DNA from: a virus
Lineage: Duplodnaviria; Heunggongvirae; Uroviricota; Caudoviricetes
Length of the DNA: 11,394 nucleotides
Virus record (IMG/VR): IMGVR_UViG_2585427657_000001
Reading direction: 5' to 3' (one strand)
Shown here: positions 931 through 9,441 of the stretch, piece by piece
Position numbering within the stretch: position 1 is the first letter of the stretch
Layout of the letters: each line of letters starts with the position of its first letter
Notes under the pieces: model-generated
What the model saw: only the letters and a program-made list of their open reading frames with translations
Told to the model about the DNA's origin: nothing
Databases searched by the model: none
Translations under genes and position numbers: made by a program

Positions 931-1114
931 CGGGTATCACAGATATGACAAACACGAAAAAAGCGGCCCCGATATGGAGCCGCCTTTCTGAACAATTAAC
1001 CCGCTGCGCCTTATGTGTATATGATCCCAAACATAAGCACGGGGATGATAGCCGCTATCAAAAAGTAACGGGTATTTTATCAAAAAAGTAACGGGCGGCT
1101 GGTGGGCAATGCAA

Positions 1115-1288
1115 TCAGTCTGGTTCAGTTCGTTGCCATACCTGCAATGAGCGCTTTTCCCTGTATTCTTTAAGGAATTGCTCAAGGGCAAAAGCACATG
1201 GCGCGAATCTTTCTGATTCATGCTCTATCTTTCTGCGCCGTCTTTTCCGTGCCGGTGATAATGTTTTGGTCAATTCTTTATCGGTCAT
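1115..1288 (-). CDS. Hypothetical small basic protein (57 aa, MTDKELTKTLSPARKRRRRK...)
   Basis: Minus-strand ORF about 55 bp downstream of the 1346-1651 regulator gene on the same strand, with an AGGA about 7 nt before the ATG at 1288. No homology recognised. Confidence 0.25.
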   Translation of the reverse strand: MTDKELTKTLSPARKRRRRKIEHESERFAPCAFALEQFLKEYREKRSLQVWQRTEPD

Positions 1289-1345
1289 TGTGTTGTCCTG
1301 CATAGCAATGCGCCGTAATACCTTACACCACGGCGCTGATGGTGA

Positions 1346-1651
1346 TTACTCTGGTTCTTTGGTCTTGCGGCGCTGGAGTTCTTCACGTGCGACAGTGACG
1401 AGCTGCCCGATCTCCTCGGCGGCTTTGATTCCGAGTTTTTCCACCTGCGCCAGTGCATCGTGCGAAGAAATCAGGGGGTTTTCTCCGCTTCCTTCTGCCT
1501 GGCGGCGGGCGATTTCACCGCGCATGGCGGTTACTATGAATCCGGCGTTGCTTTCACCGTCCAGTTTTACGGATTCCATGCCTTCAATAACATCATGCGG
1601 GATCCGAGCTGTCAGTGATTGTGATTTTGCGTTTTTTGAACCTGTAGCCAT
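1346..1651 (-). CDS. Small DNA-binding regulator, ribbon-helix-helix (Arc/MetJ-like) pattern at the N-terminus; candidate island repressor
   Basis: Start ATG at 1651 preceded by GAGAGGA (better than the upstream ATG at 1666). N-terminal SLTARIPHDVIEGMESVKLDGESNAGFIVTAMRGEIARR fits strand-helix-turn-helix of RHH proteins. Divergent from the small-ORF/primase operon. Confidence 0.55.
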   Translation of the reverse strand: MATGSKNAKSQSLTARIPHDVIEGMESVKLDGESNAGFIVTAMRGEIARRQAEGSGENPLISSHDALAQVEKLGIKAAEEIGQLVTVAREELQRRKTKEPE

Positions 1652-1672
1652 CTGTAATCCTCTCAATGAAAG

Positions 1673-1749
1673 TGTAAGACAATATACACATAAAAAGTCT
1701 TACATAAAAGCATTGACATGTAAGCCACCTATAAATAAAGTTACTTACA
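1673..1749. promoter_or_regulatory. Divergent promoter/operator region: two inverted-repeat pairs and a candidate sigma70 promoter
   Basis: Perfect 8-bp inverted repeat TGTAAGAC (1673-1680) / GTCTTACA (1697-1704) with 16-nt spacer; second pair TGTAAG (1719-1724) / CTTACA (1744-1749); TTGACA (1713-1718) -N17- TAAAGT (1736-1741) reading rightward and overlapping the second pair. Confidence 0.45.
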
Positions 1750-1847
1750 CCTTGTTAATGCAAGGTGCAGAAACGACGAAACCCCGCACTGTAGGAGCAG
1801 TAACGGGGCTTCTAACCACCAACGATAGCAAGATTATCGAGGCAGCT

Positions 1848-2048
1848 ATGAGAAATTATACCATACACCCGCAAGGGCGGGACTCGTACAACCTGAATAA
1901 ATACATCTGGCGTTTTATCGCCCTGAGCACGGCACAACCGCGCGTGATTACCATCGAGGCCACCAGCGAACAGGAAGCGCGTCAGCAATCTCCGGCTGGC
2001 TGCGTGATGGTATTTGCTGCCCGTATTCGTCAGGGGGTAGGCTTATGA
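1848..2048 (+). CDS. Hypothetical protein (66 aa), first gene of the small-ORF/primase operon
   Basis: ATG at 1848 with GAGG 6 nt upstream; stop overlaps the next start (ATGA at 2045-2048). The longer ORF 1266-2048 is antisense to the regulator gene in its 5' part and is not supported. Confidence 0.4.
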   Translation: MRNYTIHPQGRDSYNLNKYIWRFIALSTAQPRVITIEATSEQEARQQSPAGCVMVFAARIRQGVGL

Positions 2049-2275
2049 GCCAGGAAATCACACTACAACAGGCAGCAGAACGCGCCCACCAAATCGAAGT
2101 TATTTGCGCACTGGCAGAGGATTACCCTGGCATGATGACCGACAGCGAATCAGGGGCAATCATCGGCTTACTTAAACGCCTTAGCGGTGAGGTCTGCGTA
2201 TTCCTGAGCGATGAACAGGAAAGAAGAACGCTTATTTCTAACGAAAAAAAATGCGGAGGGGTACATGTGCAATAA
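2045..2275 (+). CDS. Hypothetical protein (76 aa)
   Basis: ATGA overlap with the upstream ORF; part of a chain of coupled small ORFs. No homology recognised. Confidence 0.5.
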   Translation: MSQEITLQQAAERAHQIEVICALAEDYPGMMTDSESGAIIGLLKRLSGEVCVFLSDEQERRTLISNEKKCGGVHVQ

Positions 2276-2486
2276 AACCACACCGGACGCAGCAGCCGCC
2301 GCGCTCACTACGCTGATGCACGCGCTTATCGATATTGAATGCACTGCAGAGCTTGCGCAGGGAGAAGAACAGAAAGACCGGACACAGTTCGCCCTGGAAT
2401 GTATCCGATACATCGCAACACGGTCGCTGAATGACGCTAAAAATATTCTTGTTGCTGATTGTGAAAATGGGGGGGGTTATGCGTGA
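2265..2486 (+). CDS. Hypothetical protein (73 aa from ATG 2265)
   Basis: GGAGGGG ending 3 nt before ATG 2265; overlaps neighbours by 11 and 8 nt. The ORF track starts at 2211, but 2265 has the better ribosome-binding site. Confidence 0.45.
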   Translation: MCNKTTPDAAAAALTTLMHALIDIECTAELAQGEEQKDRTQFALECIRYIATRSLNDAKNILVADCENGGGYA

Positions 2487-2700
2487 TGATCGTTTTAATT
2501 CCCTGAAACAGGAATTTTCCGGCGTTCCTGATGATGCGGCTGATGCGCTTTCGTCAATGCCAGAACTTATTAGAGCGGCTTTTTTCTTACTTTCCACGAG
2601 AGAATATAAATCAACGGGGCTTGATGTACTGAATATCGCCGCCGATTATGCTGATTTCGTGACAGAGGTTATTTTAAGAAAAACGACGGACGGGGATTAA
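2479..2700 (+). CDS. Hypothetical protein (73 aa from ATG 2479)
   Basis: G-rich Shine-Dalgarno before ATG 2479; overlaps the upstream ORF stop. The ORF track start at 2431 would overlap the previous gene extensively. Confidence 0.45.
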   Translation: MRDDRFNSLKQEFSGVPDDAADALSSMPELIRAAFFLLSTREYKSTGLDVLNIAADYADFVTEVILRKTTDGD

Positions 2701-2701
2701 T

Positions 2702-2935
2702 ATGCGTGATATTTACCACGAAACAATAGACCGCGCATTTCTTGCACTTTCTCACAGTGAAAACATGCTGGAAATATTGCGCATATGGCTTGAAACACTT
2801 GGCGACAATGAACGCGACAAACAAAAATCAAGAATTGCCACGGCATTAATAACGCTTCTTGAGCCTGTAATAATGGAACTGCAAGAAATAGATCTATTGC
2901 ACGATAGATATAAAGAACAGCACACCGGAGAATAA
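2702..2935 (+). CDS. Hypothetical protein (77 aa)
   Basis: Starts 2 nt after the upstream stop, with GGGGA upstream. No homology recognised. Confidence 0.5.
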   Translation: MRDIYHETIDRAFLALSHSENMLEILRIWLETLGDNERDKQKSRIATALITLLEPVIMELQEIDLLHDRYKEQHTGE

Positions 2936-2940
2936 AAATA

Positions 2941-3240
2941 ATGAAACTTAAATATTCTGGCTTAACTGCCAGTGGCAACACTCACCCTAAATTTACGCGC
3001 GGCGATATTTACCGCGACCAGTACGGCGGCACGGTAATGATTAAGGGCGTGGCGGGACGGTGCGTAACTTACCGCCGTGAAGGTTACGAATATGATTGCG
3101 TGATGCCTGTTTATCAGTTCCGGCGTGATTTTTCTCTGGTACAGACCGCGCCGCATAACGTGCCCACCAGCAACGCCAGGGCACGGGCAAACATCCAGAA
3201 GCTGAAAACCATGATTAACGGATTCAGGGGTAAAAAATGA
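2941..3240 (+). CDS. Hypothetical protein (99 aa), translationally coupled to the primase
   Basis: GGAGAA Shine-Dalgarno before ATG 2941; stop overlaps the primase start (ATGA at 3237-3240). Confidence 0.55.
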   Translation: MKLKYSGLTASGNTHPKFTRGDIYRDQYGGTVMIKGVAGRCVTYRREGYEYDCVMPVYQFRRDFSLVQTAPHNVPTSNARARANIQKLKTMINGFRGKK

Positions 3241-4991
3241 AACTGGCACCGAACGTAAAACAGCAGTCACGCGGCATAAAACACAAAGGAACAGAAGTCA
3301 TTATTTTTGCGGGTAGTGATGCCTGGGCACACGCGAAACAATGGCAGGAACATGATGCGCGTATGGCCGGAGATAATGAGCCTCCTGTGTGGCTTGGGGA
3401 GCAGCAGTTATCAGAACTGGATAAGCTGCAAATTGTGCCGGAAGGCAGAAAATCCGTGCGCATATTCAGGGCCGGATATCTTGCGCCAGTAATGATAAAG
3501 GCGATTGGTCAGAAGCTGGCGGCGGCAGGCGTACAGGATGCAAATTTTTACCCTGATGGTATGCACGGTCAGAAGGTGGAGAACTGGCGCGAATATCTGG
3601 CCCGTGAGCGCCAGAATCTTTCTGATGGTCTGGTCATTGAGCTTCCGGTAAAGCAAAAGGCGCAACTTTCGCAGATGGCGGACAGTGAGCGCGCGCAGCT
3701 GCTTGCCGATCGCTTTGATGGCGTTTGCGTACATCCTGAAAGTGAAATCGTTCACGTATGGCGCGGCGGGGTATGGTGTCCGGTCAGCACAATGGAACTT
3801 AGCCGCGAAATGGTGGCGATCTATTCAGAGCACAGGGCCACTTTCAGCAAGCGCGTAATCAATAACGCCGTGGAAGCGTTAAAAGTTATTGCCGAACCAA
3901 TGGGCGAGCCGTCCGGCGATTTGCTGCCGTTCGCCAATGGTGCGCTTGACCTGAAAACGGGGGAATTTTCCCCGCACACGCCGGAGAACTGGATCACCAC
4001 GCACAACGGCATTGAGTACACGCCACCAGCACCAGGGGAGAACATCCGCGATAACGCGCCAAACTTTCATAAATGGCTTGAGCACGCAGCCGGAAAAGAC
4101 CCGCGCAAGATGATGCGTATATGTGCCGCGCTGTACATGATTATGGCGAACCGGTACGACTGGCAGATGTTTATTGAGGCCACCGGAGACGGCGGGAGCG
4201 GTAAAAGTACATTCACACACATAGCCAGCCTTCTGGCAGGGAAACAAAACACGGTAAGCGCTGAAATGACATCGCTTGATGATGCTGGTGGGCGTGCGCA
4301 GGTTGTCGGGAGTCGTCTTATCGTCCTGGCAGACCAGCCGAAATATACAGGCGAAGGAACGGGCATCAAGAAAATCACGGGCGGCGACCCCGTGGAAATT
4401 AACCCGAAATATGAAAAGCGTTTTACGGCGGTAATCAGGGCGGTGGTGCTGGCAACCAATAACAATCCGATGATATTCACCGAACGGGCCGGAGGTGTGG
4501 CACGTCGTCGGGTGATATTCCGGTTCGATAACATCGTAAGCGAGGCAGAAAAAGACAGGGAGCTACCGGAAAAGATCGCGGCTGAAATCCCTGTCATTAT
4601 CCGCCGCTTGCTGGCGAACTTTGCCGACCCTGAAAAGGCACGGGCTTTACTCATTGAACAGCGTGACGGTGATGAAGCACTGGCAATAAAGCAACAGACG
4701 GATCCGGTTATTGAGTTTTGCCAGTTCCTGAATTTTCTGGAGGAAGCACGCGGCCTGATGATGGGCGGCGGTGGCGATTCAGTGAAGTACACGACCAGAA
4801 ACAGCCTTTACCGCGTCTATCTGGCGTTTATGGCGTACGCAGGCAGGAGCAAACCGCTAAACGTAAATGACTTTGGCAAGGCTATGAAGCCAGCCGCGAA
4901 AGTTTACGGACATGAATATATTACGCGGAAAGTTAAAGGAGTAACGCAGACTAACGCAATAACAACAGACGATTGCGACGCGTTTTTATAA
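3237..4991 (+). CDS. Replication initiator: primase/helicase of the phage-plasmid P4 (alpha) / PICI Pri-Rep type
   Basis: 584-aa protein with Walker A P-loop GDGGSGKST and a following hydrophobic-Asp segment (SRLIVLADQP) typical of D5/P4-alpha-like primase-helicases. Sits between alpA and an iteron array as in satellite replication modules. Confidence 0.8.
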   Translation: MKLAPNVKQQSRGIKHKGTEVIIFAGSDAWAHAKQWQEHDARMAGDNEPPVWLGEQQLSELDKLQIVPEGRKSVRIFRAGYLAPVMIKAIGQKLAAAGVQDANFYPDGMHGQKVENWREYLARERQNLSDGLVIELPVKQKAQLSQMADSERAQLLADRFDGVCVHPESEIVHVWRGGVWCPVSTMELSREMVAIYSEHRATFSKRVINNAVEALKVIAEPMGEPSGDLLPFANGALDLKTGEFSPHTPENWITTHNGIEYTPPAPGENIRDNAPNFHKWLEHAAGKDPRKMMRICAALYMIMANRYDWQMFIEATGDGGSGKSTFTHIASLLAGKQNTVSAEMTSLDDAGGRAQVVGSRLIVLADQPKYTGEGTGIKKITGGDPVEINPKYEKRFTAVIRAVVLATNNNPMIFTERAGGVARRRVIFRFDNIVSEAEKDRELPEKIAAEIPVIIRRLLANFADPEKARALLIEQRDGDEALAIKQQTDPVIEFCQFLNFLEEARGLMMGGGGDSVKYTTRNSLYRVYLAFMAYAGRSKPLNVNDFGKAMKPAAKVYGHEYITRKVKGVTQTNAITTDDCDAFL

Positions 4992-5004
4992 TTTGTTGCA
5001 ATGG

Positions 5005-5232
5005 CTGTCTACCCTGTCTACCTGAGTAAAGAAAAATACATTTAATTCAGTGCATTAAGTTAGGTAGATAGCCTTTTTTTACTGTCTACCCACTATCTAC
5101 CCTCTCTACCTGATTTTACCTGAATCAGACAGGGAGGTAGACACGGGGTAGATAGTGGATAAAAGCACTCTACCCCGCTGAAAGCCGCGCCATTACTGGC
5201 ATGAGGGCCACTAAGGTAGATAAGGTAGACAA
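5005..5232. repeat. Iteron array; candidate replication origin
   Basis: Eleven copies of a 9-mer with core TCTACC (CTGTCTACC, CTATCTACC, CTCTCTACC and complements GGTAGATAG, GGTAGACAC, GGTAGACAA) in both orientations at 5005-5013, 5014-5022, 5063-5071, 5082-5090, 5093-5101, 5102-5110, 5136-5144, 5147-5155, 5166-5174, 5215-5223, 5224-5232, with an AT-rich stretch at 5023-5060, directly downstream of the primase gene. Confidence 0.7.
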
Positions 5233-5279
5233 GGGGAGGCACAACTCAAAACTTTTTAAACGAGGGGGTAAAAATAAAT

Positions 5280-5558
5280 ATGCACACTTCAGGGAAATTT
5301 AATAAATCACTCAAAAAACGCAGAGACAGAACAGAACCGAAATATCGCGCGTTAGACATGACAGAGCACGCTTTAAAGGTGGCAATCAGAACGATAGACC
5401 GACACGTAGGGGAAGGATACGCGAAGGAACATCCCGACCTGATAAGCGCATTCATGACCACAGCAGCGGCAAACTTTGCCACGCTGACAGAACGGGAGAT
5501 TGCCGAAGCGGAACAGGTAACAACCATCAACGTTAAAACCGGAGAGGTGGAATCATGA
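5280..5558 (+). CDS. Hypothetical protein (92 aa)
   Basis: Strong Shine-Dalgarno GAGGGGG before ATG 5280; stop overlaps the next start (ATGA at 5555-5558). No homology recognised. Confidence 0.55.
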   Translation: MHTSGKFNKSLKKRRDRTEPKYRALDMTEHALKVAIRTIDRHVGEGYAKEHPDLISAFMTTAAANFATLTEREIAEAEQVTTINVKTGEVES

Positions 5559-5997
5559 CAGCACAGATAGCCGCTTACGGGCGGCTGGTGGACGACCCGC
5601 AGGTAAAACAGACCAGCAAGGGCACACCGATGACGCTGGCGCGTATGGCGGTCCCCCTTCCGTGCAGCCAGGCAGATGACGGAACGGCGACGATGTGGTT
5701 ATCCGTCCTGGCATTTGGCAGACAGGCCGAAGCACTGGAAAGGCACCGCAAGGGTGAACTCCTGAGCGTGGCGGGCATTTGGTAAGCAGGCCGGGTAACA
5801 TGCAGATCAGCCAGTGGACTGGGCAGAACGGAGAAACGCGGCAGGGCTGGCAGGTTATCGCAGACAGTGTAATCAGTGCGCGAACGGCGCGACTGGGCGG
5901 CAAAAAAGGTCAACAGGGCCAGGCTACTGACGCGCTGAACAGGGCAAAACAACAGGCGGGGAATGATGATCCGTACGGGGATAACATACCGTTTTAA
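5555..5997 (+). pseudogene. ssb: Single-stranded DNA-binding protein (SSB)-like gene interrupted by a frameshift (frame change near 5777-5782)
   Basis: N-terminal ORF (5555-5785) ...TMWLSVLAFGRQAEALERHRKGELLSVAG resembles the SSB OB-fold (E. coli ...[28 protein letters not shown]). The downstream frame (ATG 5800 to 5997) continues with MQISQWTGQNGE... and ends DDPYGDNIPF, like the SSB acidic C-terminal tip (DDDIPF). Adding one T to the TTT run at 5778-5780 restores a continuous reading frame. Confidence 0.5.
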
Positions 5998-6012
5998 GCG
6001 ACGAGTGACAGA

Positions 6013-6035
6013 AGCCGGAGCAATCCGGCTTTTTT
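6013..6035 (+). terminator. Rho-independent terminator after the SSB-like gene
   Basis: Stem AGCCGGA / TCCGGCT with GCAA loop followed by TTTTTT. Confidence 0.6.
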
Positions 6036-6085
6036 ACGGGTCCTCCTGGCGGGGTGGGCCTGAACACGGGGCGGGAGGCGCGGAA
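6036..6085 (+). other. Degenerate cos-like remnant (third copy of the cos-associated repeat)
   Basis: GGGTCCTCCTGGCGGGGTGGGCC...ACGGGGCGGGAGGCGCGG parallels the 8502-8551 segment (GGGTCCTTCCCGGAATATGGACCC GTTACG GGGCGGCGACCT CGCGG), but the cosN 12-mer is mutated (GGGCGGGAGGCG). Confidence 0.4.
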
Positions 6086-6210
6086 AAAAGCGCATTTTTG
6101 TGATTTTATCGTCATCATCATCATGAGCGTAATTTATTGTTTTTAATTGTTTTGATGCAAAAAAGATGATGGTTGTGGTTAATTTTCGTTCGACATCTTT
6201 GCAGGCAGAT

Positions 6211-6275
6211 AGCCGGAGCAATCCGGCTTTTTTAAAAAAAGCCCGATAAGGTCAGAGGTGGCTTATCGGGCTTTT
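6211..6275. terminator. Tandem terminators: a second copy of the AGCCGGAGCAATCCGGCT hairpin, then a hairpin flanked by an A-run and a T-run
   Basis: 6211-6233 is identical to the 6013-6035 hairpin plus T-run; 6234-6275 is AAAAAAA GCCCGATAAG ... CTTATCGGGC TTTT. Confidence 0.55.
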
Positions 6276-6352
6276 GCATATGAGGCTTTTTGGTGCACTG
6301 ACACACATGATCGGGATAATCATTTCATAATTTGCAACGCAACTCAACATCA

Positions 6353-8501: not shown

Positions 8502-8564
8502 GGGTCCTTCCCGGAATATGGACCCGTTACGGGGCGGCGACCTCGCGGTTTTTCGCTATTTATG
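8502..8564 (+). other. cos site 1: palindrome GGGTCC-N12-GGACCC, then lambda-type cosN (GGGCGGCGACCT at 8532-8543) and lambda-like proximal flank
   Basis: Sequence GTTACG GGGCGGCGACCT CGCGGTTTTTCGCTATTTATGA matches the lambda cohesive-end region as recalled (GTTACG GGGCGGCGACCT CGCGGGTTTTCGCTATTTATGAAAATTTTCCGG). No lambda-like R-site motifs are recognisable downstream. Confidence 0.7.
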
Positions 8565-9239: not shown

Positions 9240-9441
9240 AAAACTGAGAAACGACATGAAAGCGTCATAAATCGCCATTTTAGATGATTACCGTGTCGTT
9301 TCTTTTTATTGTGTATCTATTTAAAAACAAATAGTTATGTTCGAGAAGTACCGACATGCTTTTTCCAGAAAAATTTTCATAAACAGATAAAACCCGCGAG
9401 GTCGCCGCCCCGTAACGGGTCCATAATTCCAGGAAGGACCC
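9240..9441 (-). other. cos site 2 (inverted): lambda-type cosN (minus strand of 9399-9410) with lambda-like cosB (R3/I1/R2/R1-like segments) and upstream GGGTCC/GGACCC palindrome
   Basis: Minus strand reads GGGTCCTTCCTGGAATTATGGACCC GTTACG GGGCGGCGACCT CGCGGGTTTTATCTGTTTATGAAAATTTTTCTGG ...ACTTCTCGAACATAACTATTTGTTTTTAAATAGATACAC...AAAGAAACGACACGG...CATGTCGTTTCTCAG, which parallels the recalled lambda left end (TTCTTCGTCATAACTTAATGTTTTTATTTAAAATACC, AAAGGAAACGACAGG, CTGTCGTTTCCTTTCTC). Confidence 0.65.

Follow-up and report, generated by a model that had tools for sequence, protein, structure and literature searches.

The stretch of DNA analysed here (11,394 nucleotides; IMG/VR record IMGVR_UViG_2585427657_000001, Caudoviricetes; hereafter the window) is a phage-inducible chromosomal island (PICI) of the EcCICFT073 type, a phage satellite of ~9.7 kb adjoining phoQ. 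Our subject is the control region of its replication genes. In this region a gene for a 101-residue protein (1346–1651, minus strand; hereafter the regulator), delimited from the list of open reading frames (ORFs), NCBIfam, homologues and PHROGs, diverges from a plus-strand operon that begins at 1748 and encodes an Icd-like protein, a primase and an SSB. The two share a single regulatory region, which is the layout of a PICI master repressor. The regulator gene starts at an ATG preceded by the Shine–Dalgarno sequence GAGGA (1658–1662), and its homologues begin at the same methionine. A first-pass annotation of this DNA had proposed that the protein is a ribbon–helix–helix (RHH) repressor that acts on two inverted-repeat operators over the operon promoter, forming a switch for island replication similar in logic to that of Stl in staphylococcal islands.

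Both inverted repeats are where that annotation placed them. TGTAAGAC at 1673–1680 is followed after a 16-nt gap by GTCTTACA at 1697–1704, and TGTAAG at 1719–1724 is followed after a 19-nt gap by CTTACA at 1744–1749; reading of the sequence and an inverted-repeat search give the same two pairs. TGTAAG/CTTACA occurs seven times in 11.4 kb, against 4.3 copies expected, and four of the seven fall within 77 bp. None of 2,000 dinucleotide-preserving shuffles had four or more copies of this hexamer pair within 80 bp, while at least one such cluster arose in 13.5% of shuffles if any hexamer was allowed. Their sequences favour a different reading of the two dyads, as four pseudo-palindromes (GTG-N5-CAC) of 11 bp each, the first dyad comprising sites S1 and S2 and the second S3 and S4. 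The centres of the four sites are 23, 23 and 22 bp apart.

The sites are arranged around two promoters. The operon promoter (P_op; 1713–1741, plus strand) consists of TTGACA at 1713–1718, a 17-nt spacer and TAAAGT at 1736–1741; as first described, it is overlapped by the second repeat pair and points into the small-ORF and primase operon. In a promoter scan it was the island's best sigma-70 match (10 of 12 positions), and a scan of the island found after it no other promoter of comparable quality and no intrinsic terminator before 6211. S3 (ATGTAAGCCAC; 1718–1728, plus strand) directly follows the −35 element of P_op and fills the start of the spacer, and S4 (GTGTAAGTAAC on the minus strand; 1740–1750) overlaps the end of the −10 element and the predicted +1. 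The regulator's own promoter (P_reg; 1681–1709, minus strand) can be inferred from a −10 element TATATT (the reverse complement of 1681–1686) and a weak, T-rich −35 element at ~1704–1709. S1 (GTGTAAGACAA; 1672–1682, plus strand) overlaps the −10 end and start region of this promoter, and S2 (ATGTAAGACTT on the minus strand; 1695–1705) lies over its spacer and −35 edge. The whole region is symmetric about position 1711, such that the sites mirror each other over two back-to-back promoters, that of the regulator and that of the icd-like-to-primase operon. The repeats are real, but where two operators on the operon promoter had been assumed there are four sites, each of a size for one dimer, distributed over two divergent promoters. 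Sites in the spacer and over the +1 of a near-consensus P_op have the geometry expected for a repressor.

The regulator belongs to the YlcI/YnfO family. Residues 9–50 match the N-terminal model of this family (YlcI_YnfO_N, NCBIfam NF041551) with 72.6 bits against a cut-off of 30, RefSeq gives the protein the same family name, and 255 homologues were found in Enterobacterales. Its full length matches phrog_6522 (E = 3.6e-57); a short form of the protein, described below, corresponds to phrog_949, and both are of unknown function in PHROGs.

The first-pass annotation had judged the N terminus compatible with an RHH fold and had named structure prediction as the check. The AlphaFold2 (AF2) model indeed has RHH topology over residues 9–54 (1490–1627, minus strand), followed by one long C-terminal helix, with a mean predicted local distance difference test score (pLDDT) of 82.7. 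The domain is laid out as a β-strand (S12–I17, SLTARI), helix 1 (residues 19–28), a G32-E33-S34 turn and helix 2 (residues 35–54). In the monomer model both helices are formed and residues 12–18 appear as an extended stretch, the paired strand being beyond the reach of a monomer. The model is similar to solved structures of RHH domains, as a member of that fold should be. Sequence comparison adds further hints. No Pfam family scored above threshold; 19 of the 28 YlcI/YnfO family members compared gave a weak match to the RHH family PSK_trans_fac, the best with E = 0.0011. Alignment with Arc by hhalign was in register at a probability of 5.6%, pairing K-S-Q-x-x-x-x-R-I-P-H-D-V of the regulator with K-M-P-Q-F-N-L-R-W-P-R-E-V of Arc through the common motif R-x-P-x-(D/E)-V. 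A profile search of the PDB with the regulator did not find an RHH protein, and sequence searches for solved structures and a search of phage genomes returned nothing specific. We accept the RHH assignment on the basis of these several weak lines together with the co-variation of protein and sites.

To follow this co-variation we aligned 45 distinct regulator/promoter regions carrying 17 variants of the β-strand, drawn from E. coli, Shigella, Enterobacter, Klebsiella, Cronobacter, Serratia, Erwinia, Xenorhabdus, Photorhabdus and viral-contig collections. Their architecture is uniform. Every long-form locus has four sites, at ~24, 48, 70 and 94 nt from the regulator ATG. By eye, a TTGAC −35 element (TTGAA in some) lies ~64 nt from the ATG with a TAnnnT −10 element 17–18 nt downstream, and the −10 element of P_reg is kept between S1 and S2 as TATAAT, TATACT or TATATT. 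The promoter hexamers stay constant while the cores of the sites, their five central bases, vary.

This variation follows the β-strand, the hypervariable specificity segment of the protein (residues S12–I17). The strand SLTARI accompanies the core TAAGA; LTTVRV and LFTVRV accompany TGTTT (sites of the LTTVRV class read GTGTGTTTC); QISIRI goes with TGATT, MTTVRI with TATTT, QLNARF with GTATT or CGATT, ALKARV (CFT073) with GGCCA, RYDVRV with TCGGA and TIAARV with TTCAA. Within the strand it is residues 12 and 14 that the cores follow. A given class keeps its core across genera, as seen for SLTARI in E. coli and Enterobacter and for LTTVRV/LFTVRV in E. coli, Xenorhabdus, Photorhabdus and Serratia, and different classes are found in E. 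coli islands whose flanks are otherwise near-identical. Counted per region with at most one mismatch, the S3 core was found 3.08 times in other loci with the same β-strand versus 0.31 times in loci with a different one; these numbers are descriptive and are not probabilities, but the pattern is unambiguous. We regard this as the key comparative result and as the decisive evidence: as in other RHH proteins, residues 12–17 of the β-strand appear to set operator specificity.

The same comparison bears on whether another protein could read the repeats. Were they bound by AlpA or by a host factor, their connection with the RHH gene would be one of genetic linkage only, and AlpA, a DNA-binding activator encoded ~700 bp away, is at hand for such a role. 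The alleles of AlpA are, however, uncoupled from the operator classes: AlpA is 94–97% identical across islands of three operator classes and unrelated (20–34%) between two islands that share an identical regulator and operator. AlpA was rejected as the reader of the repeats on this ground. Icd-like proteins are likewise common to several operator classes, the cores not being tied to the downstream genes, whereas the dependence on residues 12 and 14 singles out the RHH protein. We consider binding by another factor to be extremely improbable.

The position of the module is conserved as well. It lies between alpA and the replication operon whatever type of replicase follows, and in 69 of 90 loci identified by a leader RNA motif (see below) a divergent RHH-type ORF occupies the regulator's slot. 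These include members of other short RHH families (for example, MSTPLEKRSPPYQMRLPEEF...RGIEPKG). With different RHH families found in one slot, the slot behaves like an exchangeable immunity module.

Four sites phased regularly at ~23 bp might instead serve as an architectural nucleoprotein array for activation, excision, packaging or partition. RHH proteins are known in such roles (compare TraY, TraM, ParG and omega), and the E. coli K-12 namesake YlcI adjoins the cos region of prophage DLP12, divergent from nohD. Yet the sites sit exactly on the −10/+1 region and on the −35/−10 spacer of both promoters, and do so in all classes, while the iterons of the replication origin (5005–5236) and cos-like sequences (8530 and 9397) are found elsewhere in the island. 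An architectural role, or one as activator, is a poor fit to sites that overlap promoters and is, in our judgement, distinctly improbable.

The remainder of the regulator is dominated by its C-terminal helix (residues 59–98; 1358–1477, minus strand), modelled with a pLDDT of ~95 and presumed to be an oligomerisation or partner-binding domain. An exhaustive profile search returned 74 representative clusters, of which ~15 span this helix and the others match residues 1–55 only; the regulator hence has two modules. A helix–hairpin–helix motif was considered for the C-terminal region, its only support being an invariant Gly74 and a weak match to Hef (E = 0.015); AF2 renders the region as a continuous helix.

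Nature provides the regulator both with and without this helix. In short forms of 58–64 residues, residues 52–93 are precisely absent, in frame. The regulator of EcCICFT073, the model Gram-negative PICI, is of this type: it has 59 residues, consists of the RHH domain only and carries the β-strand ALKARV (NC_004431.1, 1380473–1380652). Its operator core is GTGGGCCACAC, and S2 is missing from the locus. Short-form loci are without S2, and several have perfectly palindromic sites, such as GTGTCGGACAC, GTGTTCAACAC and CTGGAATCCAG. By analogy with Mnt, this pattern would fit a C-terminal helix that couples adjacent dimers.

We propose that the 101-residue protein is a sequence-specific RHH DNA-binding protein that acts as a maintenance (immunity-type) repressor of the island, a reading to which we assign a probability of about 0.7. 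Regulator dimers would insert their paired β-strands (residues 12–17) into the major groove of the four 11-bp pseudo-palindromes GTG-TAAGN-CAC, and the C-terminal helix would join neighbouring dimers, S1 with S2 and S3 with S4, making binding cooperative. Occupation of S3 and S4 would block the spacer and +1 of the strong icd-like-to-primase-to-SSB promoter and keep replication off. Occupation of S1 and S2 would place dimers at the mirror positions on the weak P_reg, and the regulator probably also represses itself through this negative autoregulation. Upon helper-phage infection, an anti-repressor or AlpA-dependent transcription would open the switch. In this form, and within the limits of a computational analysis, the repressor–operator interpretation of the first-pass annotation is supported; the picture now comprises four sites, two promoters and two forms of the protein; repression, the control of replication and induction by a helper phage are what we infer from it. 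In kind this is an ordinary RHH repressor–operator module. What makes it interesting is the place that it occupies in Gram-negative PICIs.

Several observations weigh against this proposal. The case for a repressor, as regards both binding and expression, is entirely computational. P_reg is weak, falls below the threshold of the promoter scan and was read from the sequence. Because the related loci share ancestry, the co-variation statistics are inflated. The orientation of the sites varies by class (→ ← → ← here, → → ← ← in the KNIR classes), rendering the proposed pairing of dimers uncertain. The main uncertainty is the rank of the regulator in the regulatory hierarchy. In EcCICFT073, AlpA is needed for induction and its overexpression alone causes uncontrolled replication, and the authors of that study did not find a repressor (PMC6092414). 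Since this AlpA-driven island has only the short form, the regulator may not be the master switch.

These observations lead to a further explanation, in which the regulator binds its sites but provides transient shut-off or fine-tuning, in the manner of Arc or Cro, with quiescence and induction governed by AlpA and/or the leader RNA. That AlpA is necessary for induction of EcCICFT073 and by itself sets off uncontrolled replication when overexpressed (PMC6092414), and that the regulator there is the RHH-only form, would agree with this. So would the strongly conserved leader hairpin between the promoter and the first gene, and the RNA-based immunity of P4- and P1-related satellites (PMC10111431). 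Against it, the gene is transcribed divergently from its own, probably autoregulated promoter, as is usual for maintenance repressors such as Mnt, Stl and CI; a near-consensus promoter has both its spacer and its +1 covered by the sites; and specificity has diversified into many classes, as it does in immunity systems. We hold a transient or fine-tuning role to be unlikely and retain the maintenance repressor as the preferred reading.

A last explanation concerns the gene next to that of the regulator. The distal part of the leftward unit (957–1303, minus strand) comprises an ORF of 62 residues (1115–1303; phrog_21027) and a strong intrinsic terminator (989 to 957). The 62-residue protein is basic and of unknown function, and its ORF is probably co-transcribed with the regulator gene. 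The two could constitute a type II toxin–antitoxin pair, with the regulator as RHH antitoxin and the repeats as an autoregulatory operator only. The ORF is near-identical among E. coli loci but confined to them, being absent or replaced by unrelated ORFs in Xenorhabdus, Photorhabdus, Erwinia, Serratia, Klebsiella and Cronobacter. It has no match to any toxin family in Pfam, NCBIfam or PHROGs, and two of the four sites are on the promoter of the divergent operon and not on that of the regulator. With the partner not conserved, the pairing was rejected, and we rate an antitoxin function as very improbable. Between the two genes lies an intercistronic hairpin, GCGCCGT...ACGGCGC (~1310–1336). A candidate fifth operator at 1320–1330 (GGTGTAAGGTA, minus strand) falls inside this hairpin and has the same sequence in loci of other specificity classes; it was dismissed as a chance resemblance.

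The 100-nt leader of the operon is itself structured, with three predicted hairpins and a fold z-score of −3.2. Hairpin 1 (1748–1767, plus strand; CACCTTG/CAAGGTG) is at the predicted 5′ end of the transcript and is partly conserved. Hairpin 2 and its tail UAACCA occupy 1778–1818 of the plus strand (GAAACCCCG...CGGGGCTTC; hairpin 1778–1812, tail 1813–1818). Hairpin 3 (1823–1842, plus strand; CGATA/TATCG) abuts the Shine–Dalgarno sequence GAGG (1839–1842) of the Icd-like ORF and shows compensatory changes in four of its five pairs.

Hairpin 2 with its invariant tail is more conserved than the operators. The element ends in UCUAACCA, and GGGCNTCTNACCA occurs exactly once per related locus. Its motif can be written as (A-rich)-CGAAGCCC-variable stem-loop-GGGCYTC followed by UAACCA, located directly upstream of Icd-like genes, and a pattern scan recovered it from at least 120 viral contigs. 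Among these are some GC-rich and probably non-enterobacterial loci in which no RHH-type ORF diverges upstream; the inner stem of hairpin 2 is wholly different in these loci yet still pairs. In an alignment of 61 sequences, 83.7% of cells pair, compared with 70.2% in shuffles, and the covariation score is 0.257, compared with 0.066; none of 500 shuffles reached either observed value. Both statistics are biased upward, since the search pattern prescribed the outer GCCC/GGGC pairs and the sequences had passed a fold filter. When the partners were slid by 1–3 columns, at most 48% of cells paired. The pair adjoining the fixed ones still varies, being A-U, C-G or G-C.

The element was compared with known RNAs. 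No Rfam family matched it in the window or in 14 diverse related loci. An immunity RNA of the P1 c4/P4 CI type (C4, RF01695; isrK) was discarded, there being no match within 1640–1900 at E values up to 10, nor in the whole window; among the 14 related loci the Rfam C4 model gave one match only, elsewhere in the locus, and none on the motif. Pairing of the hairpin 2 loop with the tail UCUAA in a pseudoknot was also dropped, as inspection by eye found it not to be conserved. With its stem of ~7 bp, an inner stem-loop and ...ACCA after it, the element looks like a tRNA minihelix or a substrate of RNase P, and the UAACCA tail loosely resembles boxA. By these resemblances, hairpin 2 may be a tRNA-minihelix-like processing site for RNase P or a boxA-like antitermination signal. 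The leader RNA stands beside the regulator as a second lead.

Among characterized systems, the Mnt/Arc pair of P22 immI has several features in common with the regulator. Both have an Arc/Mnt-type RHH N terminus with the motif R-x-P-x-E/D-V, the gene diverges from the operon it controls (here, is proposed to control) and the operators overlap the promoters of both operon and regulator; Mnt, moreover, has a C-terminal helical extension after its RHH domain. The differences are equally clear. Sequence similarity is not significant (hhalign probability <6%), four sites ~23 bp apart replace a single operator of 17–21 bp, and the operon encodes an Icd-like protein and a primase rather than an antirepressor, in a satellite rather than a phage. 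CopG, omega and MetJ provide precedents for cooperative binding of several RHH dimers to short repeats over promoters, as would apply here, and for specificity set by β-strand residues. Their repeats of 7–13 bp are contiguous, however, whereas the sites of the island are about two helical turns apart and extend across two back-to-back promoters.

The analogy with Stl/Rpr, the master repressors of Gram-positive PICIs (staphylococcal pathogenicity islands, SaPIs), holds for the logic, in that a repressor gene would diverge from the replication operon and the island would be silent until a helper phage acts. It does not extend to the protein, which is not homologous to Stl, and Stl is not known to be an RHH protein. 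Gram-negative PICIs, moreover, are reportedly induced through the activator AlpA. Nor does the analogy extend to gene orientation: Stl is co-oriented with int (PMC6092414), while the regulator here opposes both int and alpA.

RNA-based immunity offers another comparison. In the C4 antisense RNA–icd–ant system of P1 immI and with the CI RNA of P4, as in the island, an immunity element (in the island a proposed one) lies directly upstream of an icd-type first gene, and a structured leader ends in ...ACCA. This end recalls the C4 and CI RNAs that are processed by RNase P. The island differs in having a candidate protein repressor with operators, P1 immI and P4 immunity being RNA-based.

The nearest relatives by name, YlcI (DLP12) and YnfO (Qin) of E. 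coli K-12 (DUF3950), have the N-terminal family in common with the regulator and are small, prophage-borne and uncharacterised. YlcI has 64 residues, is without the C-terminal helix and is encoded in a lambdoid prophage, where its neighbour is the cos/nohD packaging region instead of a replication operon. In the K-12 locus that we examined, ylcI (4252–4446) encodes an RHH-like sequence, TRNIRFPNQMIEQ..., and diverges from nohD across the DLP12 cos region. This placement hints at a different role for the prophage members, perhaps one related to packaging.

No account of YlcI/YnfO function came up in literature searches, nor any report of an RHH regulator in PICIs or other satellites. In a survey of Gram-negative PICIs, a 'Bro zone' that contains immunity RNAs is placed between alpA and the genes for replication, and the regulator is not mentioned (PMC10111431). 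In CFT073, the regulator and the Icd-like gene have locus tags (C_RS30120 and C_RS30125) that are out of series with those of their neighbours, which suggests that both were added by a later re-annotation. Late annotation of these small ORFs may explain why the regulator was overlooked.

The RHH gene with its four sites is the best candidate for the repressor that has been 'missing' from Gram-negative phage-inducible islands. The candidate occurs in the model island, has predicted operators and exists in natural long and short variants. It comes with a predicted recognition code relating β-strand residues 12 and 14 to the 5-bp core of the site, which would offer orthogonal repressor–operator pairs for the engineering of PICI-based delivery vehicles. 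More tentatively, the gene and its four operators could be the long-sought immunity or maintenance switch of PICIs and the leader hairpin a new class of cis-acting RNA, a combination that we regard as possible but doubtful. If true, the switch would have diversified into many specificity classes, like the immunity groups of phages, and the C-terminal helix would be a handle for cooperative binding or for helper-encoded anti-repressors. It would have been missed since the small ORFs were unannotated in the model island, itself of the short form. The leader hairpin would then constitute a second, RNA-level control of icd-type early operons in satellites of many Proteobacteria.

The wider gene order is that of a Gram-negative PICI of the EcCICFT073 type, with int, alpA, replication genes and capsid and packaging genes in ~10 kb at a specific attachment site. 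EcCICFT073 itself has the same gene order and the same chromosomal position beside phoQ. E. coli Nissle 1917 has an island that is 100% identical over the 1-kb stretch around the regulator, and 1,690 of 5,426 complete E. coli genomes, about a third, contain a match to this stretch.

Upstream of the regulator unit, the window includes the 3′ end of the integrase gene (1–228) and a gene for an AlpA-type helix–turn–helix protein (724–930), both on the plus strand like the operon. The segment 957–989, which separates alpA from the leftward regulator unit, forms a strong hairpin that has a T-run on the minus strand and, on the plus strand, a weaker T-rich tail. It is likely to be a bidirectional terminator that would insulate the regulator and the operon from alpA transcription. 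As the alpA transcript would meet this bidirectional-looking terminator, simple read-through into the operon is not obvious. RefSeq annotation of the matching island has an 'Icd-like, incomplete' pseudogene at 981–1460 of the window (plus strand), overlapping the regulator gene; it is probably what remains, in decayed form, of a 'Bro-zone' gene located between alpA and the regulator.

The first gene of the controlled operon encodes the Icd-like protein of 66 residues (1848–2048, plus strand; NCBIfam NF033153, 69.9 bits; phrog_6196). The rest of the operon (2045–6228, plus strand) comprises close-packed small ORFs, a DUF4222 gene, a D5_N/DUF5906 primase gene (3237–4991, plus strand), the origin iterons, the SSB gene and a terminator (6211–6228). 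The iteron RGGTAGAYA is present in 11 copies, in both orientations, just 3′ of the primase stop codon and is presumed to mark the island's origin of replication. Sub-threshold Rfam matches in the window, among them mir-135 and SprD, were put down to chance similarity with iterons or hairpins and rejected.

The operon is followed by genes for a capsid protein (lambda E type), a decoration protein (D type) and a small terminase (Nu1 type), and these by phoQ on the minus strand. Four GGCTTTT/AAAAGCC repeats cluster at 6225–6290, after the terminator of the early operon and upstream of the capsid block, and could represent a late-gene regulatory region. CGGGGCGGCGACCTCG is present in two inverted copies, one upstream of the Nu1-like terS (8530–8545, plus strand) and the other near the right end of the island (9397–9412, minus strand). 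It contains GGGCGGCGACCT, which we take to be the lambda cohesive end and which is also present in the DLP12 cos region of E. coli K-12.

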